From the NCBI GenBank assembly GCA_008632985.1, contig QPGO01000035.1, positions 545,899-609,898 of the forward strand: a DNA stretch of 64,000 bases, written 5' to 3'. A program made the position numbers and the translations under genes. This DNA comes from Psammoneis japonica. Its lineage: Eukaryota. The notes beneath the pieces are model-generated. The model had not been told where the DNA came from. It searched no databases and worked only from the letters and a program-made list of their open reading frames with translations. This document shows, in pieces, positions 1,461-64,000 of the stretch; the first letter of the stretch is position 1; each line of letters starts with the position of its first letter.

Positions 1461-2699
1461 GGTAAGGGGTTATGTATCAGAGAAAGCTTGAGGTTTTGTC
1501 TTGATTGTGAGAGAAAGCGTTGGCGCCCGTCCAAGCTTGCCACGACCGATGGCTCGAAAGAAGTTTGCGAAAAGTTTTCAAGTGGGATTCTTGGGCGGAC
1601 TTTTCCTTCCTCAAAGGCAAAAACCATTCACGATTCTGTCACCGCTAAGAAGCCATGCGCTCAAGAAAGACAGGCTTTTCGTCTCCCCCCCTAGTAACAT
1701 GCCTCAATTAGAGCAGGTACGAAGTGCCTCCGCTCACCTGATAAAATACGAAATCTCTCGATCCTATGCTCATAGCTCATGCCACACAAACACCCAACAT
1801 GACATGTCTGCGCCATCATTTGAATACCTCTCGAGGATGTGGTACCGCTAAAATGAGCCTACGTAGCTGAACTCCAGAATGCTAAACCACAACCCATTAT
1901 TCCCTTGCGATGGTGCACACAACATGAAGCACCTTGCCTTCTCCCCACCCCACACCAACTACACCACCGTTGTCGGCCGCAATAGGCAAGCTATTCTATT
2001 AAATGCACGTTTTCGATCTTCCAACAAAACCGTTTACTTTCTTGAAATACACTATGGTAGAGCATCGACTAAGGGATACCGAGCATCGCACATTACTACA
2101 TCAACTCATCTATTTCAGATCGACACAACCAGCATCATGAGTCGAGATGAGAGATGAGAGAGTTTTCGTCCAGAGTGGAGAAGATACTGCCTATTTTCAA
2201 TACAGTATTTGTTTACTTATATGTTGAATGATGTGACCACTTGCCGGCATGCTCCGTCGACATACGGTGCTGTAATTCCGTCCTTCGCTTCAGGTGAGCC
2301 ATGCGTGACAGACGATGGAACGAGAGCAAAGTTAGTTCAAAGTAAAGAGCAAAAGGACAGAGATTTCAAGACTGGGTGAAAGAAGCCAGTGTTGAGAGTT
2401 CGAAGTTCTGCTGCAGGAGCTAAACATGGTGCAAAGTGGTGTGCCAGTGTAAATCAAATGGGGTGTCCAGTGCGTGGTTGGCATCGAATTGGGCTGCGAA
2501 CAAAAAACGGAAAAGCTGAGAAAAGGCAAAAACGTCGTGCAATCACACAGTTCAGCTCAACTCATTGGCATCCTCCTGCAGTCAGTGTTTAAATTATAAA
2601 GTGACATGTTCAGTGCCTTCATCCATGGGTCTCTCACACGTTGCGCTGCAGTGACTCGGTTCAACAACGCTCAGATTCATCGCCCGCCGTTTAGAGAGC

Positions 2700-4791
2700 C
2701 CTCTGACTCACTGGCCAATGGATCACTTGAAAGGTGATTCACACTTTTCCTTGTCATTGGAGGTGTTCAACTCCTCATTATCCAAACTTCCGCTGCTTTT
2801 CAAGCTGTTTCCATCAGAAGTTGATGCCCCCAGGCGATGCAGCACCGTGGGTGAGGCGGAGTCTCTTGAAGGGAGAGATGGAAGTCTCCACATCCATCTT
2901 TCATTCACGAGGCCACTTGTGACTTGCCATTGGTCCCGTGCAAGCCTCGCTCAGAAGGTTGTCTAGATCTGAAACAATTTTGAAGAGGGGGCATGACTTC
3001 CTTCTTGGGAGACAACGCAAAGGCGCCCTTTGAGGTTGCGGATTTGCTCTTCAAGCACTTCTCGACGCGTTCCAGCCCTAGGTGGGAGCTCGTAGTACTG
3101 ACGTGTGACAACAATAATTAAATTTTTATCATCCGTCGTATGTTTCGTACGTAGATTTCTACGTGTGATATTTAAAAAAAATTGTCCAGACTCGCTGTTT
3201 TGCGAAGCCCCAGACGTTTTATATAACAAATTTATAGAAACAATAATGCGCCAGTTACATTCTTCAATGTCTGAAGAATGTAACTGGCTAAGTAAAAAAT
3301 GATGTACTTCAATCATGTGCGAGTTTGTGCGTTCGCAAAATTGCCTCATTTTCTGTTGGCGATCATTGACATTCTAATTACCGTATAATTTTACTACGGA
3401 GCTCGCACGTAGAAGTCTACGGGCCCAATGTCACACGGATTCCCACCTACGTCTGGAACGCGTCTCTCTGTCTTTGGCAGAGAAAGTCGCAGCACTGCTT
3501 CTGTCATCAGTGGATTCAGTGTCAATGATGACCTTCACATTCACAAGTCTGCCACCAGCTTCAACATGCACTGAGGTTGAAGAGCTGGATGGCCTCTTGC
3601 TTCCGGAAGAAGAGTGGCAGTTCCTGTTGCCAGGGCTGCCACACTGCGTGTTGCTGGGAGCGACAGCAAGTTCATGATCCTCCTTGTCATTTGATCCATG
3701 GCAAGCCTCTGTCTGAAATGCACTGCGCTGCTTTTGACTTGCTTGAAGCTCCTCATTGGCATCATCTTGAAGGCTGCTGAGACACTCAACTTGCGCAGTG
3801 AAGGCTTCTTTAAGAGGAGCAACCTGCTGCCTGTGAAGCTCTTTGCAATGCTCTTCAATTTCCTTGTCATGCTCTTCAAGTTCTGCGCCGCACTCTTCAA
3901 GTTTTGTGATGTGCTCCTCATTGTTGCAAGCTTCTTCCCTTGATTGGTCAACACCCATCAACCGAAGGTGATGACTTTGATGAGTGGAGAGTTGCTCTTC
4001 AAATGATGAAGCCTGCAACTCTGGTGGAAGACATGCTGTGAGTTTCCGGCAACATTTGACGCAGTGCGTGCATCTCTTGTTGTCGCACAGATTGACCTTC
4101 TGGAGCTTGACAAAGGTTCTTGACATTGACTCAATGGTCTTGATCAACTCTGTTGTGATTTGAAATGCCAGCCACAAAGAGAAATCAAAACACATGAGCA
4201 AGGCACAAGGTGATCTTACGTGAGGAACAAGAATGGAAGAGCCCCACTTGCCCATTCCAGCAACACCAGATTCATCACATTCTGACAACATGATGGTCAT
4301 TCTTTGAGTGTTGGCCTTCTCTTTCCAATGGACTGGACACACAATGGAGATGAAACAACAACATGGTCAGCAAAATGACAAGAAATGGATGCGGGTCTGC
4401 TCTGCATTGTCACCCATCAAAATGGCTGTGGCACAGAATTTGCACCAAAGCCTGCAAAACAAAGCATGGTGATGGCAGAGAGAAAACCAGCGCTCATCTT
4501 GATCATTCAAAACAACAATGGTCATCTCTCAAGTCAATGATTCTGGAAAGAGACGCAGCCAGATTGCTGAAACGGCAGGTTTCCCATGACCACACGGCTG
4601 GTGCAGAACCCACACCTTCACAAGCCACACGTCCCATGAATCCATGCATTGTGCCATGACATGCATCAGATTGTCTTGCAGAGAAATCACAACACAAAAT
4701 GACTCACCATCTTCTTTGCCTTGGTGCTCACGTTGCATGTCTTGACGGCGCGATTGCTTGAAAACAAGACACTGGCATCGTCATTTGTCAT
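2700..4791 (-). pseudogene. Hypermutated paralog of the 10-1460 / 34569-36315 gene family, interrupted by a MITE
   Basis: Recognisable exons MTNDDASV...KAKK, KEKANTQRMTIMLSECDESGVAGM and ...TFVKLQ. The acceptor TAG is now TGG (~4325) and the donor GTAAGT is now GCAAGT (~4250). The 303-aa ORF has no Tyr. The 3' end is approximate. Confidence 0.75.
3064..3464. mobile_element. MITE, family A copy 1 (401 bp), TpA-rich and unmutated
   Basis: 24-bp TIRs GACGCGTTCCAGccctAGGTGGGA / TCCCACCTacgtCTGGAACGCGTC. 4-bp TSD TCTC (3060-3063, 3465-3468). Homologous copy at 48785-49179. Confidence 0.92.
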
Positions 4792-6685
4792 GGCAACAGA
4801 GTTTTGCATCGCTTGTGGTTTCATCTTGATTGCTGGACAATGAAGAGTGAGAGAATTCATTGGGGCATTGATGCTTGACATTCATGACAGATGGCCAGAA
4901 AGAGGTTTGTGAAATGTGTTCAATCAGGACTCCTGGCAGACGTTTCCTTTCTCACCACCCACATTGGCTTTGTGCACTCACAACATGCAGGAGAGTGCCA
5001 ACACTGATCTCGTGGACTTTCCGACCAACTGGTCTTTGAAATTCAAGAGTCAGAGGATCATTGAAAGGGTCAACAGCACACATGGGTGAGCTTGTTCTTC
5101 TCACAAATCTTGGCCCACATGTGTCAAACAACACCTGGTGCAACTGAGGAGACATTCATGATTCAGTCAACAGTGATCCATCACTGCTGCAGAGTGTTTG
5201 TTGCTTCATTTGTAGAGGCCTTCCCCACCATTGATTTTTGTTGCATCAACAGAAATGGATGAAAATGCATGTGTGAACAAGCACTGGCAGACAAAAGTTG
5301 GAGAATTGAAAAGGCTTTCCGTTGGCGCATCATGGACTGAGACGTCTGCTGCGCTCCGTGGAGAGCTCAAGCTGATGTGACACAGCAAGTTGGTGAGTCG
5401 GAATGTTTGGCTGTCAAAGCTCCAATGCTTCTCACAAATCCAACAACAGGATGGGAAAGTTTTGCCACTGACTTTCACAACTTGTCTGTTGCTCCAGAAT
5501 TCATTTTCTTGATGTTGCGGCTGCCTGGACTCCGATGCAAGATCCCTGACATCCCTGTTGTTTGGCTTGCCACAGATTTTTAATTGTCCCTTCAACACCT
5601 GCCTGCAAAATGACAATTGAGTCATTGATTGATCAAAAGAGTTCACAGAGCTCGTCTTCAAGTTTCAAACAACCCACTCCAGGTGTGTTGCAGCCACACC
5701 ACAAAAATCAATCATCGCATGACAGTTTCCACCTTTGCGAGCAGCTGCCGACTGAGTGATGGTTTGAATCATGGCAGTTTGCCAGATTGTCCTCTCTTGC
5801 TCTTTTTGCAATGACAATCATGCAGGAGGAGTTGCAGAGTTGAACTCAATCCACAGGTCCGTTGCCAAGGCGAAGTTGGGTTGTTTCCTGGGCAGCTCTA
5901 GATTGACGACTGTGATTTCAGTGGAGACACGCACTGCAAAAGAGACAAACCCTTGCCTTGTGTGCTTGCAACCCATTGTCAGGGCAGCAAAGAGCTTGTG
6001 CTTGACAGCAAATCTTTCGAAGCACGCTGATGCCATTCGTTGGTTGCCCCAATTGAGACAGGTTGGGGAAATTTTTTCCAATGAGTTGGCATGAGTCGAC
6101 ACCATGTCTGAGGTGGAAAGTGGACGAGCTCACTGCATGTTTTGTCAATGGACAGGGAAGGATGTCAACAACATGTGGAGTGATGCCACATGTGGCAGTT
6201 TTCTGTGCTTGCACTTTCAAGCTCGACGTTTGGTTGCTGTTTGCTCAACAACTCCAGCTGTGCACCCACCATTGGATTTTGTGTTTGAGCCTTGCAACAC
6301 TTGAGAGAAGCACTGGAAAAGCAGGGGCAGGGATGAGACTGGGTGACACTCAGTGGAGACATCATTCTCATCCGTGACAGCGAGATGTCTCACTTCTCCC
6401 CGCCACAACCATCGTCAACCCGTGCCCCGTGCGCTGAGTGCGTCGCGCTCGCAACTTGGGAACTGAGGAACTCTCAACGAACTGCGATGCGCGTGATTTT
6501 CGCGCGACGAGAACTCGCGCCGAAAAAAAAAACTCGGAGCGCGCGCGCTGAGCACACAAACTCCAATCGGAACCCGGAAACTTTTCGGTTCTCGCTGTTC
6601 GCTGCGCCTGTTCTCTGCAAAATCACATCAGAACGCTCTGCAAAAAAGACGTTACCAAAGCAACATCGTCATTGGACCCATCACC

Positions 6686-7405
6686 ATGGTGAAGCAAGCC
6701 CCCTTTACTGCTCAACTTATCTATGCTGATACCAAGGCCAAGTTTCAGGAGCACACGGCTCCAAACGGCCAGGTCTACGTTGAAGTCGAACCGGACGCCG
6801 AGTACTTTGTTCGGATTCGTTCCGAACGTCCTGGATCTGTTCTCTGTTTCATTGAGGTAGACGGAGAGAGCCTTGGATACCATGACAATCTTTCAAATGC
6901 TTCTGGTTATCGTGATAGGGGATTATATTCCTTTGATGGGGTGAATCAGACGATGAAAGCTCTTGTGTTTGTCAAGACGCCCGTACAGATGCAAGGCGAT
7001 CCTGCAAACGCTCCTCCATACTGGACAGGAGAAATCAAGGTTTCATTCTACGAGGGTATCAGGACCGAAGAAACGTATGAGCTACAAGCATCGTCCAATA
7101 CGTGGAACGGTGGAAATGTGGGACACATGATTGGAAACGATCCTAGCAAGAAGAAGGGTCTCAAATCAAGCAAGGGCGAGTACCAAGAAGTTACGCAAGT
7201 TTCCGGTGGAAGATGCACACATTACGACAGGGGACAACTCCTCGACACGATTGTCTTGAAGTACTGCTCTACGATTGGCTTGATTCATGCAGGGATCTTG
7301 CCCAAGCCGCCAGCATGGGAGCTTCATCGCATGATGCATCCCGCAAACACGGCTCCAGTGGACCAAGCGACCGCCGGTATGAGTGTCGACCTGACTGCGA
7401 GCTAG
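6686..7405 (+). CDS. Hypothetical protein, 239 aa
   Basis: ATG-initiated single ORF with normal amino-acid composition (Tyr present) and a globular beta-rich pattern (VYVEVEPDAEYFVRI, GEIKVSFYEG). Confidence 0.75.
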   Translation: MVKQAPFTAQLIYADTKAKFQEHTAPNGQVYVEVEPDAEYFVRIRSERPGSVLCFIEVDGESLGYHDNLSNASGYRDRGLYSFDGVNQTMKALVFVKTPVQMQGDPANAPPYWTGEIKVSFYEGIRTEETYELQASSNTWNGGNVGHMIGNDPSKKKGLKSSKGEYQEVTQVSGGRCTHYDRGQLLDTIVLKYCSTIGLIHAGILPKPPAWELHRMMHPANTAPVDQATAGMSVDLTAS

Positions 7406-8108
7406 AGGTCGAGTTTCGAGAGAATTAGAAGAGAGAGGTCCAATTGAGGATATCTTGCATGACTTACGATATTCGAATCAAAGGATTTATTTACATGCAA
7501 CATACTAAAGCAGTGGTGTTTAGGATATGTGTTTCGCCGCTCTTCTTCTTTCTCTTCATTACCTTGTTTTAGGTCATTTTATCTGCAGTTGGCAGTGGCC
7601 AATTGATACTATACTGGAGCCTTGAATTTAACCTGATTGATGGAGTTTAGCCTCTCTATTACCGGTATCATAGAGAGGTTTCTTTCGCACAATACACTGT
7701 ATGGTAGCAAGTCGCGTTCCCTCACCAGGGGATATGGGTTCCAACGGTGGAATTTTCAGTTTTGAAATAGTTATTTATCTCCAGAAATGAGATCATTCAT
7801 TTTTGTTTCATCTCTATGCTTGAAGAAATATCAATGATTCACGTCGATTTGTCGTTCCCAAAACCATTACCAGGTAACCAGACTGTGAACTCGCCAAGGG
7901 GTGGTAGCGAAACTCAAAAACTGAAAACACTCAAAAAACGCCGCTCACTCTTTCAACTTTGCCAACAGAAGAGGTATTATACATTATACTGTAATAGCAG
8001 ACCGTGTCGACAGATCAAATTGAAACCTTAAAAGCTCTTCTGAGTGAAGCAGTTGAGAATAGTTGGGTTTAGCTTTTCGAAGTTTCGCAGCAGCACTACC
8101 TCTACAGT

Positions 8109-9080
8109 ATGGATTCAACGGTCGATCAATGCTCCGACGCAGCAGCAGCGCAACCCATGACTGCTCTTGCCTTGCTGAGACAAACGCGAAAAAGGCCTCG
8201 GCTGTATCTTTTGAATTCTTATTCTGGTTTCGGTGTCTATGAGTTGGATTTGGGTATTACCGAAATTGCGGGGAGCGCTGGTGCGGGCAAGACACAGTTG
8301 TGTCTTGGTCTGTGTTGTGCCTGTGCGTGTGAGACATTTGAGTCTTCTAGCAACCAACAGCTGAATCTAAATCAGGATAGTATGGCAGTAAATGACAAGG
8401 AGAATACATATCCGCGGTACTACAGAGCTCTGTACGTATCCATGGGTGAAGGCGGAGCTCCAGCGAAAATTGCAGAACGACTCGGCACCATTGCTCAACA
8501 CCGACATGAGCGGCAGGGAGGTCCATCTGCAAGAGAAGTTTTATCTCGAGTGCTAACCATAACGGTTAGAAATGAGGACGAATTCTTGCATCTCATCAAT
8601 CAGGATCTTCCAGCTTTGCTATCAGATACTTCATCTGAATCGCCCGTTGGTGTGGTTTTGTTTGACAGCATTGCAGGATTGTTTCGTGTGCCTGATACAA
8701 TGAGTAGTGGCGGCGGCTCCTTTTATTCTCGACGGAGTGCTGTCCTGTTTGATGTGGCTGCAAAGCTCAAACAACTCTCTGAACAATATCAAGCCCCAAT
8801 GGTGGTTGTAAACCAAGTCACATCTGTCATTTCGGATTCAAGCGAAAATCAGGTAGTTCCGGCTTTGGGAGTGACGTGGTCCAATTGTGTCAATACAAGC
8901 TTCTTGGTGACTCGAGAAGAAGGATGGGTAGACGTGGAGGTGGAGAACGAAGAGCAAAAGGTGACCACGGAGAAGCAGTCGAAATGTATCAGAAAGCTGA
9001 GACTCCATCGCTCCTCGAGGTTTCCAGAATCCGTGGTCGAATTCGAGGTTGGTGCTGGAGGACCGATTGCAACAGAGTAA
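8109..9080 (+). CDS. XRCC3: RAD51-paralog DNA repair protein, XRCC3-like
   Basis: Walker A ITEIAGSAGAGKTQLC, Walker B VVLFDSIAGLFR, VVVNQV and PALGVTWSNCVNT motifs of the RAD51/XRCC3 family. Confidence 0.85.
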   Translation: MDSTVDQCSDAAAAQPMTALALLRQTRKRPRLYLLNSYSGFGVYELDLGITEIAGSAGAGKTQLCLGLCCACACETFESSSNQQLNLNQDSMAVNDKENTYPRYYRALYVSMGEGGAPAKIAERLGTIAQHRHERQGGPSAREVLSRVLTITVRNEDEFLHLINQDLPALLSDTSSESPVGVVLFDSIAGLFRVPDTMSSGGGSFYSRRSAVLFDVAAKLKQLSEQYQAPMVVVNQVTSVISDSSENQVVPALGVTWSNCVNTSFLVTREEGWVDVEVENEEQKVTTEKQSKCIRKLRLHRSSRFPESVVEFEVGAGGPIATE

Positions 9081-9235
9081 GGCGCTATCATCAGCATTGC
9101 ACTCTGCAAATTCCCTACCTAGCGTTACAATTCCAAAAACAAACGCCTACGACCAGGGACTTCACAGTTTATACATAACTTGTTTCGTAAGTTGACGGTA
9201 CACAAGTTGTAAAAACACTCATCAATGTAGAGTTG

Positions 9236-11156
9236 CTAGTGTATGGAAATGAGGTTGTCGGGATGATGACCTCCTTTCCAATTGAGGTCTCGCACAAGAG
9301 TGGGCGTTCCGCACCCCCCTTCTAGGGCACTGAGCAACACCGCCAGGATAGCCACACCTCCCGACGGAGCGTCTGCTGTTCCTGATAATTCACCATACTT
9401 GTCTTGCACTTGGAAACGACCTTTGGCAATGCGGCTAGCCGAAAGCTCAAAAGAAAAGAACTCAACCGACCCCAAATCGTCGGACCACTTTCCAATCCTA
9501 CCACTCAGCTTTGGAGTATAGAAACAACGATGTGTCCAAGGAACAAAGACGCAAAGCACCGAGCAACCATCTGGCAGGGCTCTCCACGTCATTCTTTCGT
9601 TTCCATCATACTGAAAGTGGTCCACCATGCTATCGTGGGCTGGGAGCACAAGCGATGCCAAGCCAACGGCGCCTTGTTGTTCGGACCCGACACTCTCATT
9701 CGCACAAGGAACGAACAGTTTGGCCCAGTCGGAAAAAGCCCCTGCAGTACGACGATTTGCATACATTTGCTCGGCCGAATCTCGGAGGACACTGGTTGCT
9801 TTGGCATTACCGCGTCTAAAGTTGCAAGCAATGACTCCCACATTGGCAATTCCGCTGCTTCTTGTGGCATTCGCTTCGACGGTGGAAGACAGAATTGACG
9901 GTGTAACATTCGTCATATCGTCCTCCGTTATGTATACAAAGCCCATTGGCGCCGACTCCTCTTCAGTGGAACTGCCGCCATTGTGGTCATCATCATCTCC
10001 TGCGGACGCAGCTCCTTCTGATACTGTGTTCTCGGTTTCACAAGTCCGATTAAGATACTCCTTTTCAACCCATTCCATGCCAGGCGAAACTGTAGACAAG
10101 CCATCTTCGCACCGTGATAAGCGAGACTCCAGTAGGCTTGTTGCGACAGATTCAGGGTTCAATGTGCTATCTCCGGCAGCGGGTCGCCTCGAGTTTGTCG
10201 AAACGTGAATGGGAGATGTAACGGCGGAGATTGAGACTTTCATCAAGTCATCCGTGGGACACATTTGAAGCCTTGTCCGTTTGATGTGCTTCCTCCACAA
10301 GAAGAAAGCGAGAGCAAGCACAGCATTGATCGACACAACAACCGCACTAATTACTGCAGCATTTGCTTCCCGCCTTGACGTGTTGCTATCTTCATTCGGT
10401 GTGGGCGGAGGACTGGCACCTAATCCTGTCGGGGGCGTGGGTGAAGGCAGTGATCCACCTCCAATCCCAGGTGAAGGCGACACTGCGCTATCACCACCAT
10501 TGCTACACGCAGTTGAGACTTTTCAGCCACCAGGGAACGACCCTGTGTTTCCATTGGGGGTCTGGGTCAGCGACGAGCATCTGCCATTTTCCGTATGCTC
10601 TAAAGAACAACCTTCCTCCCAAATGCACTCAGTAGCATTGCAAACCCCCGGACTTAAGCTTCCATATGACTGTGGTCGACTAGACCCACAATTGTTTGAA
10701 CCAGCCAGAATACACTGAAATCCTCCTGCCGTCATGGCTGCAGGGCAGGCATCCTGTATCACCAGAGCAAACCTCACCGCCACTCAGACGGGTTCCATCC
10801 ATCACTACGTTACAACCAAGGCACCCTCTGGGGGGATTCTCTTCGTTGCAGCCGCACGGGTTGTCACAAGTCCACAGCCAAACTTGAACGTCGTCGAGTA
10901 GGCTCAAAAACGATGGTGCACCTCCGAAACCCCACGCATCATGGAAGCATCCCGTGACGGCATTCACCAAATCAGAAGCCACGGCATTTTCGCAAAGTGG
11001 AAAACACGCGTAGGAACAACTGGAAATGTAGACCTGTCCTAAACTAGGGCAAGTTGCGTGGATGTAAGGGATAAGTGAGAACGTCGCAAGCAGACAAGCT
11101 CCGGTGCTTTTTGCCGTGATGCCCTGGTGCCGGGCGCCTACGTTTTGCTTTCTCAT
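9236..11156 (-). pseudogene. Cys-rich single-pass membrane protein gene, apparently disrupted (frame change ~10740-10780 and in-frame TGA at 10523-10525)
   Basis: Signal-peptide-like GACLLATFSLIPYIHA, Cys-rich ectodomain, Pro/Gly stalk and TM segment AAVISAVVVSINAVLALAFFLW followed by RK. ORFs 10523-10783 and 9236-10483 share a frame and are separated by one TGA. Confidence 0.55.
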
Positions 11157-13757
11157 GCTCTTGGCTCTTGTCGACTTGAGGACAGAGCGGGAGCCAAATG
11201 AAGTCGAAGAGAAGAAGGTGATGGGAGACGGGATGATCATAAGTAATCGGATCAGGATTTCATGCAATGAGCACAAAGGCTTTAACATGTGAGATGCCGT
11301 ACGGACTTCATGGCACTCGAATTGATTGAGTCGAGGGTCGAGGCACGATTCGAGTCAAGGGACGAATCGATGCACGAATCGGCCCAAACCCACAAATTTT
11401 CAATTTTTTAGGGTGTTGGGATTATCCTCTGAGCTTCTGCGCGAATCACTAAAACTCAAAGCACGAGCAGAACAAAGCACGAATCGAAATTACCACAAGC
11501 TTCAACTTTTGCAGGGTGAACAAGCCTCAATGAAAACATGATCCTTTGCTGCAACACCTTGTCAAAAACGGTACAGTTCCAAAATTCGGCGCTTCAGCAG
11601 GGGACTGCAAACTGCAACTTGGCTCAGAGAAACGTTGCTTGACACAATCACGGCATGACACAACACTGCAGAACACATTGTTGAGCTCTTCATTGTGCAA
11701 GTGCCAGCAATCTAAATTGAATGCGCAAACAAAGGTTTGCTCAAAACATTGCTGCAGTCACATTCTTTTTCAATTCTCCAAAGCACTTCCACTCATCAGC
11801 CTCAAGTCTCAAGCACATTTTCGGCAGCGTCTCTGTTGTTGCTGAAGTGTCACGTCCCCAACCAACCATGCAGCGGGACAGGATGCAGCAAACAGCATGA
11901 TGCTGCACAACAATTTGTCCTCATCCATGATGGTGAAATTAAAGACATCACTTCTCCCCACTGCACCATGTCAACCATCTCCACACTCATCATGATGATG
12001 ATGATGATGATGTGTCGCAGCCTCTGCTTGCACAGTTGTCATCTGTCACCATGCCATTTGGTGCTGTCAAATGGATGCACCTCCCACCCTTCTCCATCAT
12101 GTTGACCAAATTCATGCCACATGCATGGACATGCTCTTAAATCCTGAATGGGTCCACTTTTTTGCAGGGGCCACTTCGGTGGCTGCCAAGGATCAACTTG
12201 TGCTCTGTCTGTTCTGCCATGCTGTCTAAAATTTTGCCTTTTCCACAAAGAGTGCATCCTCAGATTACAGTCTGAGCCACATCAAGTCTCAATGGGCAAA
12301 GTTGGTGCATGGATCTCTTGGCTGGTCCATCTGTCTCTAAATCCCGATTGGGGCTGCTTGTTGCGGGGATCGTTTTTTGGCAGCTGAGGATCAACTCACA
12401 CTCTGGCCTGTTTTGCCACACCTCTCAAATCATGCCCATTTTTGCAAGGAAAAAATCCTCAGATTGAGCTCTAAAAGACACCATTGGCTGAGTCTCAATG
12501 GGCAAAACAAGCACGGATCTCTTGGCTGGTCCATTCATCTCTCCCACTGTGTTGCAATCATGAGGCTTGTGGTTGTTGCCACTTCCTCAGTGTGGCCAAC
12601 ATTTTTCCTCTGTTGTGTGCAGCACACAGCTCCATGTGCTTGCATGCACTCCATTGGAATTCCGCTCCATCTGTTCAATGCCAATCTTTGCGTGTTCTCA
12701 CACACCTGAAAGGTTCAGAGTGAGAAGTGAAACCCACACCCCCATGTTTTGAGTTTTCTTAAATTTCCTCACAAATTTTGTCATCGCAATGGCAAATGGT
12801 GATGGAAACAGACCTGTTGCATGGGACAAAATTTTCAATTTTGTTCTTGTCTTCACTCAAATGCAAGAAGCACAGGAGTCAGAGAAAGGTTGTCTCCTCT
12901 TCTTCCAAGTCAGTCAAGTGCAAATGACTGAGCAAGGCCAGAAGATGCCCAATTGATTGCTGTTTTGCTGAAATGGTTTGTGGGTTCAACAACTCTGACA
13001 ACAGTCCACTCCTGAAGCATCATCTCCAACATGGCAGAGGTCAGCCCTGTCAACATTTGCATCACTGTTGCTTTGCCAGATGGGGTCAGAGGACTGTCAT
13101 CTTGAACATTGACAATCACGCCAATTTAGTGGTGGAGAGCAAGCTCAATGATTCAGGAGAACTCCATTTCTCCACACACACTTTTCAAGCTTCCTCCCAT
13201 GCCATTTTGCTCTTTCAGCAGCCTCCTGTTGTGCCACATTGCCTTGTCCTGCATGTTGAATGCTGCCTAGCCCCACAGCAGATCAACATGATCCACACAG
13301 CATCCATTTCTCCTTGATCCACTCAACACTTCTGTTTTGTGCTCACACACAAAGATGAATTGCCATTGTGTCCAGGTCAAAGGATGTGGTCATGTTTGCA
13401 ATTTCTCCTGCAAATCACAGCGGGACTTGGGAACAACCAAAGTTGCCAATTTGAAAGTGCTTGTGGTCCTCCTTGTCTCTCCCAGCAAAGTTGTCATGAG
13501 GCTTGCACTTGGGATTGCCCCTTGTCTGATGATGATGATCCCCTGTGTCCAAGGAGGAACTGGTCTGAACCAGGCTCCGTTGTTGTCCTGTAAATGACGC
13601 GTCCAATGTCACAGCTCCAGTCATCTGTTTTTCCATCATTCCTGGCCCCACCATCCAGAGGGAGCACAGCACTGATGCTGCTCTTTGGTTCATTGTTTTG
13701 CTGGCCATTTGTGCCCGCATGTGCTCATGGATCTTCTTTGGCAACAGTGCTTGTCAG

Positions 13758-13793
<36 letters not shown>

Positions 13794-37855: not shown

Positions 37856-37899
37856 CGGTGGAAAACAGGCCCAGCTTCTACACACCTTTTACACAGATT

Positions 37900-51373: not shown

Positions 51374-51762
51374 GACGGGCTCCAGTCCCAGGTGGGACTT
51401 TTTGTGACATTTGCCCCACAGAATTCTGCGTGCAAGCTCTGTAGTTCGTACTCTGGCCAATGGACATGTTTGTCTTCGACATAAAAAAAACGGCCAAGTT
51501 TGCAGCACATCTGTCCCTGTTCGCACTCGAAGTTTTGGATGACACGCCTGCCCTGCGCCATTCTTAAGACACTCGAGAATGGCATAGAAGAAAAAAATGT
51601 TAAAAGTTGTTCAATGGACAGCCTGACAATTGCACCATAAAATCATGCAAAATTTCGCCAAAATCACGTAGAAATGTACGTGCGCGACATACGATGCGAT
51701 TCAAAAAACTGTCGATGTCACAGCTCAGCAGTGCGAGGTCCCACCTAGACCTGGAACGCGTC
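51374..51762. mobile_element. MITE, family A-related subfamily (389 bp), partly TpA-mutated, nested in LINE
   Basis: Ends GACGGGCTCCAGTCCCAGGTGGGA / TCCCACCTAGACCTGGAACGCGTC and TSD TTGT. Removal restores FLQQ-MDSSS. Confidence 0.9.
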
Positions 51763-52350
51763 TTGTTGCAAAAAGACAGCAACTTTTGCAATCCCTTGTT
51801 TCACAAAGAGTTCCAACAGGCCAAGTCCGTTAAATCGTTTGGGCGCAAAAAGAATTTTCTTCGGGAATGACCGAGGACAACCCACAGCCGGCAGTGCCAC
51901 TTCGTGCAGCGGTTTCTCTGTTCACTGACACTCAGCTTTCGCAAGAGATGTGGCAGCCAGTGGATGTTCAACTGATTTCACAATTCCGCCCGTCAGAGAA
52001 AACCAGGCCTCCGTTCGGTTTAAATGTCCGCATCGCACTTGATCCACCCATTTTCCCACTTTCATCGCCATTGCCTCGATCTGCGTGTCCGAGTTCCCTT
52101 CTAGCGCAATGTGCACACCCAATGTCTCTCTAGCTTCTGACACCTCCATTCTCTCTGCCGTTCTCCTGTTTCCCTCATGATCCAGTGGGGTGATGTCGCC
52201 GGGTGATTCATCCTTGTTCTGACAGGTCCAGCGGTCATTTACCCACTTGAAGGATGCGAGGGACCAGTGGCTTTTCTCTGGTGCAAGTGCACCTCCTGCA
52301 GCCCTGATTCCTCCTTCCCAACAATTGGACATCTCTTGGATCTCCTGCAG

Positions 52351-52785
52351 CATGCCTCCCCACTGGACAACACGGCGAGACCATGCACAAGCCTCTTGTG
52401 CGTGACAACGCAGTGTGTTGTCAACGCGCACCTGGGAAGCACGACCACAGGAGGGTGTGGCTCCAGGTCTTAGGAAATTCCAGAAGGATGCTAAGAGAGC
52501 ATCCGTGTGAAGCACACTAGCCCGTCGTCTGGCCCACGATGGCAGCGTGATTCCACACGATGACATCACTCGTGCACAGCGCGTGATGGCTTGATTCGCA
52601 CAATCCACAATGCGAACACACAATCGATTTGATGCGATCCAAATGCGAACGAACAGGGATTTGGCAAGATTCCCTGTTCGCACTGTCCCACTTTCTCTGC
52701 TCTAAACTGGCTCACAATTTTCACAGCGACAAAGTCGCAACACATCTTCTTTTTCAGCGCCTGGCACATGCATGGGGCACTCCAT
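52351..52785. mobile_element. ~435-bp insertion of unknown type just after the LINE RT FVDD motif
   Basis: ORF2 homology stops at STCEDVL and resumes in the same frame at LQEIQEMSNCWEGG. Flanks CAG/TAG (or CAT/CAT) suggest a 3-bp TSD. TIRs are weak. Confidence 0.6.
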
Positions 52786-55700
52786 TAGAACATCTTCACA
52801 CGTTGAGTCATCAGAGCCCGGAAAGCATGGAAGATCTGTGTCATCGACAAACATGCAACACACATGGTGGTGCGCGTTCTTCGAGATTGGTGTTGTCGCT
52901 CGGATGCCGCAGCCGTCTGCTTTGAGCACATTGATCATTGGAATGCCAACCACGAGCCAAATGGCTGGTGCAGCTCCATGGCCTTGAAAGATTCCTTGCA
53001 ATGGGATCTCGATGGCACCGTGTGGTTCTTCCGAGTCCCCGCACGCTGTTCTCATGCAGTGCTGCATCTGCATGAGTGTTCCAAGCATCATGAAAACCTC
53101 ATCTTCTCTGGCTCCAAACCTTCTCATGCATGGTGCTGCCACCGCATGCAACATTCGGTCACAGCACAATTTAGCGTCCGTGCTGTTGATGGCTCCTGGT
53201 TGATGTGATTGGCAGAACATGTCTCCCGTGAGTGCCTTGTTGAGAGCACAGAGAATTGCTCGATGTCTCTTCCTGCTTCCGCACGCTTCCCATGGAACAG
53301 CTCTGCATGTCTCGGCATTGTTGACAAGAGCCCGTGCGATGTGCTTGTTCATCTTGTCACACATGGCGTCGAACAATGCAATGATTTGAAGTTTCTTAAC
53401 GTGTGATGAGTCCATTTTCTTGGGGATCATGACATCTGCCGCCTTTGTCCAACACTCAGGTGCGTGTCCATGCTTGGCCGGAATGGCTGACACACATGCG
53501 TCAAATTCCACCAGAGTCTCGTCTGAGCAACCTGCCTTGTAGTCCGAGAAGGTCAGTCCGAAGGGGCTGCTGGTTGTGTGACCTTTCATTTTCTTCCAGC
53601 CAGTGACATGCTCCTCAGTGGTGCATTCCAAATGAATTTCCGGAAGTGGTGGTTGTGGACGCTTGAGCTGTTTGATGTATTTTGCTGCATGTTCATCCAC
53701 TCCTGGAGGAATGCTGTGGGTTCCCTCCAGTGCTCTTTTTGCAGCTGGAGTGTCCAAATTGCAGCCGAAGTCTTTGAGGAGAGGGTCCTTCATGAATGGA
53801 ACCGCATGCTGACTTGTCCGTGTTTGGCTGCATCTCGATCGTCCTTCACCCTTGCATGCCTCTTCCATTCCATCTTTTGTTGAGAACACCTTGTTGACCC
53901 CGTTGGGTCCTGGTGCCGTCACTGTTTGGAGAGCCGGTCGAGGTTTGCCAGTTGCTCGTTTAATGCAACTGAACATTCTCTTTTGTCGACAGCTGTGCCG
54001 AACAATTCTTTCCTCTTTTTCCTGGGTCGTGCCTTTTTCTTCTGCTGGTTTCGCGCAACGGATCTTGAACTCGTCTTGTCCAAGCTTTGCAGCCTTTTTC
54101 TTCAGTTTGTGATGTCTTTTCATTGCCATTTTATGTTCTGCCAGTGCTTGATGGGGTCGAAGTCGAAGCGCATCCGTTCTTCCTGTGTGCTGCACACGTC
54201 TGTTGATGATCTTCATGCTGACTCTCCGAAAATGGTGCAGCTTGTACACCAATCTCCATAAGTGAATCTCTTTCCTCGCTTTGTTGATGACGTTGCTCGA
54301 TTCGACCTCGTTCATGTGGAGCTTCCTGCATTGTGCTTTTGCCTCCAGCCTTGTTTGATGGTTTTGTTGGAAGATCCGCTTGTGTTCTTGTTGTTCTGCA
54401 AGTCCAAAAACGTCAGAGTTTTCCAATCGAATGGCTCTTCGCAGCAGATCATGTTTCAAGATTTCTGTCACCACGAGCTGCACGCACTTCTTTACAACTT
54501 TTGGGTCGCCTAATTTTCCTGCCAGTCGGTCTGAGATAGTCTCCGAGAGCTTCGGTGGATTGAAGCCCAGTGCACCAGGCTTTGAAATGTCAATCCATAA
54601 AAGGCGGTGGTCAGAGGTGCAGTCGAATTCTCCGAAACCTGTCATTCCTGCCCTGGTCACCTCCAAGGCTGGCGATGTCAGAATGGCATTGACCGGCATG
54701 TTAGAACGATTCTTGTCGCATGTTGCCACTGCTGGAAGATCCGGATGCGTGGTCTTCAGTGCGTCGATCAGATGAAGAGTCCTGCACCATGCAGTGAAGC
54801 TTGTCCCTCGAACATTTTCATTGAAGTCGCCTCCAACTGCTGTTGGGTCACCCTCTTCCTGCCATTTCTTGATGTGATGCACCAAGTCTTCTAGCACCAC
54901 TTGTCGTGGACAGCGCACATCATCCTTGGAAAGGAGGTGTGTTTCTTGTTGAGAGTAAACTCTGCCAGGATTAGCTTGGGTGTCTCTAACTGGTCGACAG
55001 ACAGTGACGATCCTTGTGTGAATGCCTGATTTGCCTTGCAGTCTCGCCCATGTCCATCTACCCAGTCCCGACGGGTCTTCACCACTCAAAATTAGGTGGT
55101 GGTTGACATGTCTGGTTCATAGATGTCCCACCCCCCCGCATTGCCTTTTGTTTTCTGTCGAGTGGTGCTTGTTTGTTGTGACGAGAGTGCCATGTTTTGA
55201 GAGGCTCCTCCAGCGGTCTTTCCATTGTTTGTGTTTAGGAATTCATCTGAAGTTCAAGTTGATCTCTGTCAAGCCCATGAAGTCAGAATGTTGTTCAGTG
55301 ATCCAGTTCATCATTCCTTCATGCTTGTCCTCAGCAGAAGGTGACACTGGAAGCCCACCAACATTGTGGAAAGCAATTCTGATGGCATTGTGCCATTTCA
55401 TCAATGTGCTGTCACCCCAAGCCTCATCCAATTGACGACCAGCAGTTCCTTGATTAACGTCCTCCTTTTGCGGCAGTCGTCGTGGCCGCTGAGGACGGCA
55501 GGGACTGGGGATCTTGACCCGCTCCCTCGGCCTGAGAGCTGGGATGGTCTTCCAGGTGTCCTTGCTTGGGATCCTTCTGGGCCAGACCATTGTCTTGGTC
55601 TTTTGCTGCTCGTAGCTTTTCCAATTCTTGAACTGGCGCTTCGTTCATTTCTTGCACCTCCTTTAGTTTCGCTCGGGTTGAGGGCGTGGTTTTGACAGAT

Positions 55701-57905
55701 GCGTCCTCCTCTTGTTCACACTCGTGATGATTCTCCAGATTTGCCAGATCAAAGGTTGCCGAACGTCTCGTGGCGGATGCATGCTGTGTGTCATTGTCCT
55801 CATTTCTGAGATGACCAACAGATTCCACATCAGCGGCTTGAGCCAGTTTTGCAGCAACTTCCTGTGCTGCTGCAAGTGGGCCTTGTGTTTCCTTCTGCCT
55901 GCCTGAATCTTTCTGAGCGTTCCCATCAGAAGACTTCCGTCTTTCTGTTCCATCCATTTGTGCTTTCTCGTTGGTCCGCTGTTCCTCCACACCCCATGGA
56001 TCTTCCTTGATCATGTCTGACAGCATTTCACTGTCCTCAGACGTTGTGAGTCCAGTTTCTGGATCGCATTCCGAGTTCTCGCACATGGCGATCCCTGCAG
56101 CCGTGAACCATGGTTCTGCTGATGCTCCGCAGACATGCAGACATTCTGGGGCGACGTTGTCAATCATTTGTGAGACTTGGTCCACCGATTTCCTTGGGAA
56201 TGTCATCACATGATCGCTCGGTCTATTCCACTTGACATCCAGGTGATGGATCAAGGGAATGATCTTGTCCAGATTGGTGGGATCCGGCATCCGTTTCTGC
56301 ATGAGATGCTGTCGTAGTGTCATCTCTCTACCAGTGACTCGCATCTTGTGGTCCGGATTGTCAAGAAAGCTGAAATCAAGTTGTCCAATGACTTTCTGGC
56401 AAAAGAAGTGTTGTCGTTTTTGAAGCTTGTCGATGTTCTCCTTGGTTTTGTCTGAAGCGCACTGCGTGGTGGGGTTCGAGCAGCACGGAACAAAGCGCAG
56501 CTCTGGTCCCAATGCCTTCTTCCTGGCACCAACCCTCCACAGTCGTTCCACCGCCAGCTTGACTTTGTGTGCCTTGCTTGACTCGACAACAATGTGAAGG
56601 GCTTCCGGATTCTTGTTTGGCACATTTCTGTCAAAGGTGGGTCGTTTTCCATCCTTTCCCGCTGTGGATCTCCATTGAATGCCAAGGCTGTCGTAGTCTC
56701 TGCCCAAGCCAAGTGATTTGCAGAATTGTCTGTGCAGTGTTTGCTCACTCATTGTTTTGGTGCTCTGATGTGACCATCCGATGCATTCAAAACGGGTCAA
56801 TTGACAAGGCACAGGGTTGCGTCCAATGGAGAATTTGCCTTTTTCCATGTCTGCAAACATTCCTGAAAGTTGCGAGCCATGGTTTGCCACAGTTCTGGGA
56901 CTGCAATCTTCTGCCACCTGGACAAGGCGCAGCTGACAGCATGTTGTGTGTTCGGCGTCAACTCTTGGATTGAGATGGTCCACCCCCAAGAAGGCACTTG
57001 GCATTTCTCTTTCCTTTGCCAGTCCTTCTGGAACATCTTCTGGAGAGGCCAGTTCTCCGAAAGTGTCCTCAAGATCAGGATCCCATGTGCCAATTTGGAC
57101 TTCTTGTCCAAGCATCTCTTGCATGATCGTGGGTGCTTCTCTTGGTGCGGAGGCCACTGCTTTCAGGGGCTTTTCGGATGGTGGGATGGTCAGGAATGCG
57201 TTGTGATGCAACTGACTCCAGGGAATGCCTTCAGCATGGTCAGTGTCTTCATCGTCATGTGGTGTGTCGGTTTGTTGCGACTCTTTGTCGTTCGTCTCTT
57301 CTTCATTTCCGTCATTTTGTAGAGTGTCTGTTTGCTGAGACTCTCCTTCATTGTTTCCTCCTCGTTTTCTTCGTCGGATTCCGTCGAATGATTCTCACTT
57401 GTAAGATGTTGAAAGGTTTCCTCTTCGTCTGAGGATTCTTCATGCATGTGATCTTCTTCTGTGATTGCAATTTCCGCCGGAGCGATTGCCTTTGAGTTCT
57501 CGTCCTTTTTTGTTTTGCCTTTGAGTTCTGTTTTTCCTGCTTCGCGCAAAGGTTTTTCCAACGTCAGGTGCAAGTTTTTTCTCCTTGTTGTTGTCTTCCT
57601 TGGTACGTGAATTTTGCGTAGAATTTGTACGAGTGTTCTTGTTTTTTACGGTCGTCCACTCATTGCTCTCATTATCCATTTCCTCGTTGTGAGATCTTTC
57701 AGTTGTTTCGTTTATCTGTCCTTGTCTCCTTTGCGTGGAGAGATGTTTTTCTTTCCGCCGGTGCTTCTGCGTTTTGTGCCTGCCATTGTGCGATTTTTTT
57801 AGCTTGTTGTTTGTACGTACGTGCGAGTTATCCACAATCCACACATCACACCATGATGGATGATGGATCTGGATCTTGCCACATCCCTCGCTGGATCCGC
57901 CAGTT

Positions 57906-58787
57906 ATGAATGTGCTCGAGAGTCAGCTAAGATCTAAGGCTGGGAAATGCCTTGACCATTGTGAGGATGCGTTTGTTGCAACTCGTGACTTTGTTGGCGT
58001 GGTCGATGGAGCTACAAGCGTCACGGGTCGTCGGTGGACGGCGGACCAGCTCACGGGTGGCCAGTGGGCTGCACGCATTCTTTGCGAGGCTATCCAAGAA
58101 AATCTAACCCATGACATGAGTCCATCTGAAATTGTAGAGACTCTGACGTTATCCTTGTTCCAGGCATACAAGCAAGAACGCGGAGCACTCAAAGTTTTAC
58201 AAAAACAACCGGAACAACGTGCATCAGCGTCGCTCGTTCTGTATTCCAGACATTTGCGTCAAGTAATTCAGGTTGGGGACTGTCAAGCCGCCTTTGTAGA
58301 CCATACCGGAACGATTGTTAAACGTCTAGAGAATTCAAAATATATCGATAGAGTCACGGCAGAGGCCAGGGCCATGTTTTGGCAGGCAGAAAAGCTCATG
58401 TTTTCCAATGGACTACAAAGCTACAATCGCGACCCTGGCCGCGACTTGATCCAGCCTTTGTTGGTTCGACAGTATCAGTTTCAAAACAACAAGCACGCTC
58501 CTCAACCTTATAGATACTGGGTTCTGGATGGCTTTCCAATCGAGCCCGAGGGCATTATGGTTCATAATGTTCCTTCCTCTGTGAAACACGTTATTCTCGC
58601 TTCGGATGGATATCCGACCTTGTTTTCAACTCTTCAAGAAACAGAGCAACATCTCTCGAATTTTCTCAAGGAGGATCCAATGATGGTGGGACGATACAAA
58701 GCGACCAAAGGACTTGTCGATGGAGCAGAATCGTTTGACGATCGTTCGTTTGTTCGGATACAAATTGAGTGTCAGGATATTTCTTGA
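57906..58787 (+). CDS. PP2C/PPM-fold phosphatase-like protein, intronless
   Basis: CEDAFV, VVDGAT, QVGDC, ILASDGYP and FDDRSFV match the Asp-containing metal-binding motif order of PPM phosphatases. Confidence 0.78.
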   Translation: MNVLESQLRSKAGKCLDHCEDAFVATRDFVGVVDGATSVTGRRWTADQLTGGQWAARILCEAIQENLTHDMSPSEIVETLTLSLFQAYKQERGALKVLQKQPEQRASASLVLYSRHLRQVIQVGDCQAAFVDHTGTIVKRLENSKYIDRVTAEARAMFWQAEKLMFSNGLQSYNRDPGRDLIQPLLVRQYQFQNNKHAPQPYRYWVLDGFPIEPEGIMVHNVPSSVKHVILASDGYPTLFSTLQETEQHLSNFLKEDPMMVGRYKATKGLVDGAESFDDRSFVRIQIECQDIS

Positions 58788-62057: not shown

Positions 62058-62349
62058 GTTGCTTTTGTATGACTTGTTTCGGATTTCAAAGAGGAGTGTC
62101 GTCTTTTTGTGTTTGCGATTTGTGTTGTGCAATGCATGATCTGGGATCGCATCGGTCGATTTTTGGCGCGTGTGTGAGATTATGTGGTCTCCAGTACACT
62201 TCTCTACGCATACGAGAGACTGTACTGAAGCGGACGTAAGAAAGAGCGAACCCAAGATAAAATGTAAAATATTAAATCTTGCATAATACTTTAGAGTATC
62301 CGTTTGAAGAGTCCTAAGTAGGTTGTATGTGTGAGACATCTTCGGCAGC

Positions 62350-64000
62350 AGGCCGATGAGAATGACATCATTAGCGGGCGGCCGTGTTGTTGAGCTGTCA
62401 TCGTGCGCGCGCGCAGTGCGAACACGGTTCGGAGGATGGATGGACGACAGAGAGCGCGAAAAGAGCAGAGCAGACGCGCAAGCAGCAAACCCTAAAACGA
62501 TTCTCCCACAGCAAACAGCCTCGCATGCACACTGTGCAAAATCTTCAGCATCACAAGTTTGCTGATGATGTGCACATGGTGACCACCAACAAGGTTTTGT
62601 CAGTCCACCGACAGTGTGACACAGACTGCACATGAACGATGCCAGACCTCTCCAGGTGGCCGAGCAGATCTCTCTGAGATCTGCCTCTCATTCTCTTCTG
62701 CCAGCACTCATGTCATCACAGTCCCAGTGCTTGGGGAGTCTTTCAGACCTCCATCATCATTGACCTTCGGCATTCTGTCAGGTTGTGGCCTTGTGTTGTG
62801 CCGCTGAACTCTGCACCACGCTTTCTGTTTTGATTCATTTGTTTTGTGAGCCGATTGAGCAAGCGCCTCATCACCTGTTCCCGAAACAGTTTTTTCCTTG
62901 CTTTCCTGGCATTTTTCACAATTGTAGAAACACACCAGATTTCCACGTGTGCATGACCAAAATGCCACCACCAAGTCCAACCATGGCGTCTCCGAGCAGT
63001 GCAAACCCTCCTCCGACGTCAATTGCAGAGATCTGCTGTGAGTTCCAAGCACACAGTGCTGTGCCTCATCTCCACACATCCCTCAATGAGCTCCATGCAG
63101 ACACCAGATGTGATCTGGACCCATTTTTTGATGATTCAGAGCATGATGCTCAACTGAGGAAGGATTTTGTGGACCTGTTTCGAGATTGTCTCATCAACGA
63201 AGTGATCCCACCTTGAGCAGTTGTTCCTGCAGACATGCAATCCATCAAGATGATCCTTGATCAAGCTCAGCTTTGCATTGTGAACCCAACAAGGCCTCAA
63301 ATGAGTTGCCCAACCACTGAGAGAAAGAGGGACCACCAGTTCTGTCACCTGCTGCTGACCCACCTCTTTCTCTTGAGATGACCATGGACAGTGCAAGCTC
63401 TCTGGCATCTCCCAAGAAACCGGATGTTCATGCTCTGCCAGACAATGACCCAAGTCCACCATGTTCAGAGCAGGGGAGGGAAGAAACTGCCTCTCACAAT
63501 CCTGATCCGAAATCCTTGGAAAAGGGGAGGGAACCACCTTCTCATGGCAGTTCTGCTGCAGAATTTGATCTTCACTGACAGATTTGCTTCCAGAGGATGG
63601 TCTTGCCGCCATCAACTCTGTTGGGATCACTCCTGTCATGCCAACCATTGCCTTTGCTTCTGACATGGATCCTTTTGACTGCAAACCTGTTCAGGTGAAT
63701 GCCGCGTCATTTGCCCCCAATGAATGCTTTTGCTGACATTGCGTGCACAGGTGAGCATGAGCTTCTTCACAAGCACCAGGATTTCACACCGGAGATTCTG
63801 TGCCTGCTTGCTGTCAATCCTGTTTTAGGACCAGAAGCAATCCCTGTTGGATTCAGATGCCTCCATGTTTTGGCAGAGAACCCCAAGGCCACGTGGCGAT
63901 TCGCGCTCATTGTCATCCAAAGATTTGTTCCACCCTTGTTGATGAACGGTTGTTGCTTTGCACCAATGGCAAGCAATGAAAGGACTGCACCGTTGATTGT
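62350..64000. other. Start of another TpA-depleted TE/pseudogene block (runs off the window)
   Basis: TA almost absent from ~62380 onward, CpG retained only in the first few hundred bp, and fragmented Tyr-free ORFs. Confidence 0.65.

Follow-up and report, generated by a model that had tools for sequence, protein, structure and literature searches.

Within a 64-kb window of nuclear DNA from the diatom Psammoneis japonica (contig QPGO01000035.1, forward-strand positions 545,899 to 609,898; all coordinates below are those of the window), seven blocks were nearly devoid of the dinucleotide TpA. Transposable elements (TEs), dead gene copies and other older DNA have here probably undergone a TpA→TpG/CpA hypermutation caused by a targeted process acting at the DNA level. 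A preliminary description of the window, made from the sequence alone, had proposed a domain-restricted, directional decay of this kind in TEs and pseudogenes, and this core was corroborated by the conserved tyrosine codons of a dead long interspersed nuclear element (LINE), by the outgroup relatives of that element and by the copies of host genes, which all agreed. All statistics refer to this one window, whose placement among the diatoms was reflected in its S-adenosylmethionine (SAM) decarboxylase gene, located in a gene island of normal composition, with best matches of 72–74% identity to proteins of Nitzschia, Bacillariaceae, Fistulifera and other diatoms.

The window alternated between such islands, 3–5 kb long, and the depleted blocks. 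Among the window open reading frames (ORFs) scanned with Pfam, the recognisable genes lay in the islands and encoded a Rad51-like protein, an ankyrin protein, a lactonase, the SAM decarboxylase, PP2C and CDC20. When the composition was calculated in 500-bp bins, the observed/expected ratio (o/e) of TpA was 0.00–0.15 in the blocks, with TG/CA values of 1.4–2.2, and mostly 0.4–0.8 in the islands. A two-state hidden Markov model on TpA counts called depleted intervals at 3501–6700, 11501–15200, 18201–23100, 27401–33700, 37301–42100, 46601–51400, 51701–57600 and 62401–64000, recovering the seven blocks from which TA had earlier been described as nearly gone, next to normal islands. After refinement, the blocks comprised 35,410 bp with 150 TpA (4.2 per kb), where 1348 would be expected at island density, and the islands 26,824 bp with 1021 TpA (38.1 per kb). 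Two of the blocks needed amendment: block 1 does start near 2600 but is not uniform, an unmutated miniature inverted-repeat transposable element (MITE; TpA o/e 0.92) lying inside it at 3064–3464, and block 4, which had been drawn to 34330, was depleted as described except for 33700–34330, which is an intermediate zone.

Only four dinucleotides differed in o/e between blocks and islands, namely TA (0.07 vs 0.55), CG (0.40 vs 0.94), TG (1.70 vs 1.14) and CA (1.73 vs 1.22), while the other 12, including AA, AT and TT, were the same in both. The summed loss of TA and CG (about 628 per 10 kb) was about equal to the summed gain of TG and CA (about 670 per 10 kb), and the G+C content was 0.46–0.51 in the blocks and 0.46–0.49 in the islands. 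The earlier account of the dinucleotides was right as to the loss of TpA, but it had overlooked the parallel depletion of CpG, the o/e of which fell to 0.14–0.22 in four blocks.

The coding appearance of the blocks was also altered. The codon triplets TAA and TAG together occurred at 3.3 per kb in blocks vs 16.4 per kb in islands, TGA was commoner in blocks (25.0 vs 17.9 per kb), and ORFs of at least 80 aa were denser there (5.9 vs 4.1 per kb). Nothing credible was returned by Pfam for 130 block ORFs, nor for the block ORFs among 48 ORFs taken window-wide; the sub-threshold hits of block ORFs to DUF7497, Circovir_ORF3 and DUF6217 were rejected as chance matches. The tRNA and Rfam scans gave no match. 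Gene finders would call false genes in such blocks, and, with TEs unrecognisable to Pfam and spurious ORFs multiplying, the TE content, the gene counts and the "orphan genes" of such genomes would be misjudged.

Direction of change in gene copies and in a LINE

Island and block DNA were compared in nine alignments covering 76 island TpA sites, not all of them independent, as two block stretches were each counted against two partners. At these sites the block copy read TG in 28 cases, CA in 30, CG in 1, TA in 4 and something else in 13. The claim that TpA in one copy becomes TG or CA in the block copy, previously made from pairs aligned within the window, was thus upheld at 58/76 sites. In the older pairs, CpG transitions and background changes were added to the TpA changes. 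As a control, an island/island pair of repeats at 36339–37217 and 45703–46573 (893 bp, 90.8% identical) kept 19 of 25 TpA, with no bias in the changes. As a separate observation, depleted blocks begin no more than about 100 bp beyond the end of each member of this control pair (at 37301 and 46601), and a related mutated fragment is located at 47102–47293.

The change was seen in three host-gene copies. A Rad51-like fragment at 15040–15345 (plus strand), at the edge of block 2, was copied from positions 8143–8449 of the intact and unmutated Rad51-like gene of an island (8073–9077, plus strand) and represents an intermediate stage: 9 of its 14 TpA were changed, 8 of them to TG or CA and mostly at TAC/TAT, and the surviving sites were CTAG, CTAA, GTAA, GTAT and CTAC, three of the five being TAG or TAA. 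A copy of an orphan gene (13–1613) at 4246–4954, in the right part of block 1 (3465–6650), was also decayed, TpA passing from 6 to 0 and again from 6 to 0, and CpG from 11 to 1 and from 18 to 7. The PP2C pseudogene at 37321–37856, at the start of block 5, retained none of the 19 TpA of the gene, with one TA→CG double hit; its unmutated source is the intact island PP2C gene at 57864–58784 (plus strand), which block 6 approaches to within 264 bp.

Block 6 (46601–57600) consists of a single, dead, full-length non-LTR (long terminal repeat) retrotransposon on the minus strand (47620–57400), with an ORF1-like region at 55457–57394 and ORF2 homology from 55,550 to 47,620. Ten full-length relatives (1634–1920 aa) were collinear in tblastn with the stretch from about 55,550 to about 47,620, and their alignment broke exactly at two MITE insertions. 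The ORF of the window LINE was itself below the Pfam thresholds, and its identity was established through the ORF2 homologs, which carry an endonuclease (PF03372) followed by a reverse transcriptase (RT; PF00078) in one long ORF2. The element contains at least four in-frame stops and a frame change, and its TpA o/e was 0.06–0.14 while that of CpG was still 0.56–1.02.

The fate of tyrosine in this element gave the direction of the change. At the 23 columns in which at least 60% of the ten relatives have Tyr, the window LINE reads TGY at 9, CAY at 9, TAC at 2 and other codons at 3; Tyr was kept at 9%, whereas the other 19 residue types were kept at 55–91% in the comparison with the same relatives. 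The recoding of Tyr to Cys or His that had been proposed was therefore found at 18 of 23 conserved Tyr codons. The conserved Ile columns contained ATG, ACA and GCA and no ATA, and the conserved Val columns contained GTG and GCA and no GTA. A second set of 17 environmental outgroup ORFs gave 10 Tyr columns, at which the window element has His 5, Cys 3, Met 1 and Tyr 1.

The relatives did not share this state. In 66 related metagenome loci the TpA o/e was 0.35–0.88, and a depleted 1-kb window was present in 0/66; the protein signature was likewise present in 0/150 (the best 150 of 4621 relatives). Compared with these 150 proteins, the window LINE had 0.5% Tyr (median of the relatives 2.7%, minimum 1.2%) and 9.8% Cys plus His (median 5.1%). 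Since the relatives lack the signature, the TpA-free state is derived and is not a trait of the family; outgroup copies that were themselves free of TpA had been named as what would speak against the proposal, and none was seen in either set.

Both strands were hit in the LINE, TAY→TGY and TAY→CAY being found 9 times each. No asymmetry with respect to the transcribed strand was detected in the element, as the excess of TG over CA on the coding strand (0.13–0.35) was inside the outgroup spread (−0.17 to 0.41).

Two further observations were made on this element. The relative closest by identity, a JGI metagenome protein (P0123), is 46% identical to ORF2, contains 1.3% Tyr and 5.3% His, and reads His at 5 of 34 columns with outgroup Tyr. 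Its source may be a copy that was partly hypermutated in a related organism, for which this is a weak hint. Additionally, about 1 kb at 49690–50730 separates segments of ORF2 homology between which the relatives have only about 70 residues. This stretch contains tandem repeats, namely (CGACA)n, units of TTGTCGGGGT and a 19–20-bp palindromic unit, and is CpG-rich (o/e of its bins 1.0–1.46) and TpA-poor. It may be another insertion.

Sequence context, domain edges and recurrence

The loss of TpA depended strongly on the neighbouring bases. The block/island frequency ratio was 0.62 for TTAA, 0.35 for CTAA, 0.17 for CTAG, 0.05 for GTAC, 0.014 for ATAC and 0 for ATAT (0 vs 140 counts). Flanking bases had an effect as far as −2 and +2 (chi-square 131 and 72) and no significant one at positions 3 and 4; surviving TpA were enriched in T at −1 (0.45 vs 0.20) and at −2 (0.50 vs 0.27). 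Where the two strands compete, the A followed by C was the one hit in 29/44 contexts, as against 9/39 for A, 9/33 for G and 11/36 for T at +1. Read from these frequencies, the context spans about 6 bp, with R-T-A-Y (ATAT, ATAC, GTAC) changing fastest and TTTAAA-like sites slowest. The preference for the flexible R-T-A-Y over the stiff TTTAAA may reflect the ease with which a base is flipped out of the duplex. A flat spectrum had been named as a result that would contradict the proposal, and the spectrum was strictly contextual, with AA, AT, TT and G+C unchanged. Strand-coordinated (kataegis-like) tracts were not found, the 27 hits between MITE copies A and B forming 16 runs vs 14.5 expected.

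The edges of the blocks were sharp. The density of TpA switched within 100 bp, at 120–870 bp from the neighbouring ORFs, which are themselves normal, and the domain of block 6 corresponds essentially to the body of the LINE. The depletion of CpG followed other limits, CpG persisting for 100–400 bp inside several of the TpA edges. It was strongest in the old blocks, that is, block 2 (11501–15050; TpA o/e 0.05, CpG 0.21; content not identifiable), block 3 (18201–23100; 0.05 and 0.22), block 4 (27401–33700; 0.05 and 0.14, the intermediate zone continuing to about 34330) and block 5 (37301–42100; 0.08 and 0.18). Compared with islands, these blocks retained TCGA at 0.08, ACGA at 0.09, ACGT at 0.14 and GCGC at 0.66, and GCGC was enriched 1.68 in the young LINE block. 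This decay is presumably due to deamination of 5-methylcytosine (5mC), acting in the same domains, more slowly and not exactly coextensively. Deamination of 5mC accounts for the CpG→TpG/CpA half of the changes, strongest at WCGW and weakest at GCGC in the old blocks, but it cannot remove TpA, it is slower, as shown by the CpG retained in MITE B and the LINE, and it stops short of the TpA edges. Because the loss of TpA saturates long before that of CpG, the two together provide a two-speed clock for dating silencing events.

A family of MITEs allowed the timing of the process to be followed. Its members have 12-bp terminal inverted repeats, GACGCGTTCCAG, and 4-bp target-site duplications. Copy A (3064–3464; duplication TCTC) is inserted in block 1, whose left part (2600–3062) contains 3 TpA in 463 bp (o/e 0.11), and has 32 TpA (o/e 0.92) with a CpG o/e of 1.60. 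Copy B (48785–49179, plus strand; GGTC) and copy C (51374–51762, plus strand; TTGT) are both inserted in the LINE; B has 4 TpA left (o/e 0.15) and a CpG o/e of 1.08, and C, a related element with the same ends whose similarity to A and B is limited to about 100 bp on either side, has 11 TpA (o/e 0.41). Between A and B, the youngest pair, 28 of 32 TpA were lost (13 to TG, 14 to CA), CpG numbering 27 in A vs 25 in B, and 32 of the 43 differences were T>C or A>G, 27 of these at TpA. Copy B bears about 16 changes at its other roughly 340 positions vs the 28/32 TpA lost.

The three copies inside blocks were therefore in three states, unmutated in A, intermediate in C and saturated in B. The CpG of B is intact (1.08) within flanks in which CpG has decayed (0.47–0.58), from which it follows that B was hit after entering an already old, depleted domain; and one MITE family in three states indicated that the process recurs in episodes. 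MITE A has not yet been hit. In a sequencing run (X1), the summed contig depth on MITE A was 28,000–50,000 vs about 65 elsewhere, which suggests that the family is very high-copy; it was probably active recently.

Possible agents and alternative explanations

In the process favoured here, the A of TpA would be changed on either strand at the DNA level, giving A:T→G:C. We infer that an enzyme would be recruited to silenced chromatin, the likeliest agent being an adenine deaminase of the TadA/ADAT2 type acting on DNA, where A would become inosine and be read as G, and that its role would be genome defence, like that of fungal repeat-induced point mutation (RIP) with the opposite polarity. That the agent is an enzyme, and above all that it is a deaminase, is conjecture. 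In tRNA, A34 always follows U33, and the loop of the bacterial TadA substrate reads U-A-C-G, resembling the T-A-C/T preference found here; TadA and ADAT2-ADAT3 share with the process the A→I change beside a 5′ U or T. They differ from it in that the substrates of the known enzymes are tRNA loops or single-stranded DNA; here the changes lie at interleaved sites on both strands of entire domains. An agent of this type would be expected to have a CDA fold with an HxE...PCxxC motif. No deaminase domain was detected among the window ORFs scanned with Pfam, no proteome search aimed at deaminases having been made. To our knowledge, no natural enzyme performs programmed A-to-G editing across domains of genomic DNA.

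Concerning the trigger, everything identifiable in the blocks was a TE or a duplicate. The term "repeat-targeted" used earlier goes beyond this, as the 893-bp pair, the island paralogs of the orphan gene, MITE A and the source genes are all unmutated; the unmutated repeats and intact source genes indicate that repetition alone is not sufficient. A silenced chromatin state would be the simplest common factor of the blocks.

The alternative that survived best, though it is unlikely, is oxidation of the thymine. A TET/JBP-type dioxygenase acting on the T of TpA in silenced TEs would give 5-hydroxymethyluracil (5hmU) and then 5-formyluracil (5fU), and mispairing with G or misrepair would lead to T→C, seen as CpA or, from the other strand, as TpG; both bases are mutagenic in this direction. 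This possibility had not been considered in the preliminary description. From the sequence, attack on the T and attack on the A are indistinguishable, and the context reads equally well as R-T-A. TpC was unaffected (o/e 1.06 in blocks vs 1.18 in islands), which does not favour this route, and we know of no 5hmU in diatoms. In dinoflagellates, which also belong to the stramenopiles, alveolates and Rhizaria (SAR), 5hmU is made by a TET/JBP homolog and most of it is located in repeats and TEs; earlier studies cited in the same paper describe T as being replaced preferentially in TA and TC dinucleotides (PMC11572971). Against this, base-resolution mapping in Breviolum is reported to have shown no sequence motif for 5hmU (PMC11071213).

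A sequencing artefact, in which a dense DNA modification of heterochromatin would make the sequencer read TA as TG or CA, was judged very improbable. A modification would form domains, as the blocks do, and every run found came from one sample and study. Nevertheless, the Logan contigs of run X1, with a word depth of about 65 throughout, reproduced the blocks, which is why an artefact is unlikely. They spanned 3657–6757 with one difference (5995 C>T, in a GCT context and unrelated to TpA) and crossed block edges at 8332–12424 and 16521–19424 with no difference. A modification misread strand by strand would give both TG and CA at each site and would break a de Bruijn assembly, but these contigs were unbroken, passing as single paths of 3–4 kb through the blocks at about 65× with 0–1 differences, and each site was fixed as either TG or CA. 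The changes also sit among true evolutionary decay (stops, a frame change and MITE insertions with target-site duplications), and copies of one MITE family are in three states. Raw reads from an independent platform failing to support the G/C alleles had been named as what would refute the proposal; the contigs carry these alleles, but they stem from the sample and study that probably also gave the assembly.

It is also highly unlikely that the elements avoid TpA adaptively, under selection from a TA-directed nuclease, UpA-directed RNA decay or transposons that target TA or TTAA. UpA and CpG are both scarce in many RNA viruses and cytoplasmic RNAs, according to PMC3829696, and the TpA surviving here were biased in context. 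But the dead LINE has lost 21 of 23 conserved Tyr and carries stops and a frame change, non-coding MITE DNA and host pseudogenes were changed alike, and 66/66 related loci and 150/150 proteins (the best 150 of 4621) were normal. We know of no selective avoidance that comes anywhere near an o/e of 0.03.

Editing of TE transcripts from A to I by an ADAR/ADAT-like enzyme, fixed by reverse transcription, is scarcely credible. The main text of a recent preprint notes that ADARs usually favour U upstream of the edited A (bioRxiv 10.64898/2026.01.13.699255), and the largest block is a retroelement; the strands of the LINE were, however, hit equally (TGY 9 and CAY 9) where editing would mark the sense strand only, MITEs, gene fragments and flanking non-TE DNA were also hit, and MITE B was mutated in place after its insertion in the LINE. 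Equal strands together with mutated MITEs and gene fragments exclude editing of the sense transcript before reverse transcription. Hardly more tenable are the non-dedicated processes, Pol-eta-type synthesis at WA motifs (an option raised in the preliminary description) and GC-biased gene conversion, in late-replicating or repair-prone chromatin: both give A:T→G:C, but ApA was not depleted (71.9 per kb in blocks vs 77.4 in islands; o/e 1.23 vs 1.14), so that the A→G at ApA expected of Pol-eta was not seen, while the context-free change from A:T to G:C expected of gene conversion fits neither the unchanged ApT, TpT and G+C nor a 6-bp context with edges less than 100 bp wide.

Several facts weigh against the reading of the blocks as the product of targeted hypermutation. 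No mutation was observed arising, the process being read from the sequence of one window, and in four of the seven blocks the content could not be identified, so that the assignment to TEs or duplicates covers only part of the depleted DNA. Unmutated repeats exist, namely the pair 36339–37217/45703–46573, the paralogs 13–1613 and 35704–36461, and MITE A. The MITE A/B pair taken alone cannot be polarised, and C shares the state of B at about half of the sites in their common ends (by eye); such sharing could stem from hits in parallel or from ancestral variation. A relative mutated to the same degree was present in 0/66 loci and 0/150 proteins (the best 150 of 4621), and a spread across diatoms is unsupported. 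Run X1 shares its sample and study with the likely source of the assembly, and its agreement is a matter of consistency and not of independent replication.

Comparison with known systems and other features

The same signature, for which the preliminary description knew of no precedent, was reported in 2026 in the rhizarian chlorarachniophyte Bigelowiella natans. According to the main text of that preprint, mutation-accumulation lines carried 231 single-nucleotide mutations in two integrated viral regions, of which 230, all at TpA, were A→G or T→C; 124 TpA-poor clusters were enriched in RT and DDE domains; and the authors propose adenine deamination, citing ADAT2 proteins that act on DNA, BjADAT2 of amphioxus and TbADAT2 of Trypanosoma (Mettrop et al., bioRxiv 10.64898/2026.01.13.699255). 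As described there, the B. natans process resembles the present one in its near-exclusive A→G or T→C at TpA, with TpG or CpA as the product according to the strand, in being local while the rest of the genome is normal, in its TpA-poor, CpA- and TpG-rich clusters, where RT and DDE domains occur along with many ORFs that defy annotation, and in not being constitutive, occurring only in some lines there and in episodes here. A further mark of the B. natans type is a rate of new mutations about 1000-fold above background. The changes in the window were likewise almost only A:T→G:C transitions, restricted to TpA and confined to selfish DNA and pseudogenes, except that the content of four blocks was not identified.

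The two cases also differ. The host is a stramenopile here, and the targets are a LINE, MITEs and host-gene duplicates, whereas in the preprint text they are giant-virus and virophage insertions; the TpA o/e given there for the region derived from a nucleocytoplasmic large DNA virus is 0.45, compared with 0.03–0.12 here; and mutations were seen arising there, while here they are inferred from sequence. The −2 to +2 context and the decay of CpG belong to the present case, the words "context", "flanking" and "CpG" not occurring in the main text of the preprint, nor do "diatom" or "stramenopile" occur there. The full-text literature searched, which did not extend to subscription journals or bioRxiv supplements, contained no account of hypermutation directed at TpA in diatoms or other stramenopiles. 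On this comparison of sequence patterns, the process would be filed as the same kind as that of B. natans, though in another SAR lineage and far nearer to saturation. What the present case adds is a longer motif, TEs and duplicates as targets, recurrence in episodes and a relation to CpG decay that runs at two speeds.

Fungal RIP, known from Neurospora and other ascomycetes, which is premeiotic and depends on RID, resembles the process in its dense dinucleotide-specific transitions in TEs and duplicates, on both strands, with the destruction of coding capacity and a sharp contrast to genes. In RIP, by contrast, the change is C:G→T:A, from CpA to TpA, and leaves AT-rich DNA, while here it is the reverse and G+C is unchanged. 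The mutation of all copies expected of RIP was not seen either, the Rad51-like and PP2C sources and the 893-bp pair being unmutated, although survivorship of intact copies could hide it.

If the hypermutation is real, a mutational genome defence described in one rhizarian preprint would be extended to diatoms, major and experimentally tractable algae, suggesting an old and widespread system. Its near-saturation, its readable motif (R-T-A-Y fast, TTTAAA slow), its interleaved strands and its sharp edges are concrete constraints on the search for the enzyme. A more specific and rather doubtful possibility is that an enzyme dedicated to this task and guided by chromatin exists in diatoms, that it edits A to G at 5′-R-T-A-Y-3′ in double-stranded genomic DNA, working episodically on silenced TEs and gene duplicates until hardly any TpA remains, and that it is homologous to the agent of B. 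natans. Were this so, the "reverse RIP" would be an ancient SAR-wide genome defence, from which natural DNA adenine base editors might be drawn.

Of the remaining features, block 7 (62401–64000) runs off the window and has a TpA o/e of 0.03. The orphan gene family has two island copies (13–1613 and 35704–36461) and the hypermutated third copy at 4246–4954, located in block 1, 3 kb downstream of the first; the family had no Pfam match and no homolog in the protein search, nor had the ORF at 13–1188, which reads through introns. According to the contigs of a second run (X2), the gene at 13–1613 is spliced, skipping 807–887 and 961–1371, both with CT..AC ends. This run behaves like RNA, and the block parts of 1–20000 had no contig cover in it except a trace (0.41) in one bin; it was not used as evidence. 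Finally, an ORF of 928 aa without Pfam domains was found at 42364–45147 (plus strand), which contains an (AGC)n-based tandem array with 33-, 63- and 96-bp units at 42847–43108 and internal repeats of about 320 bp (44100–44426 vs 44454–44765).

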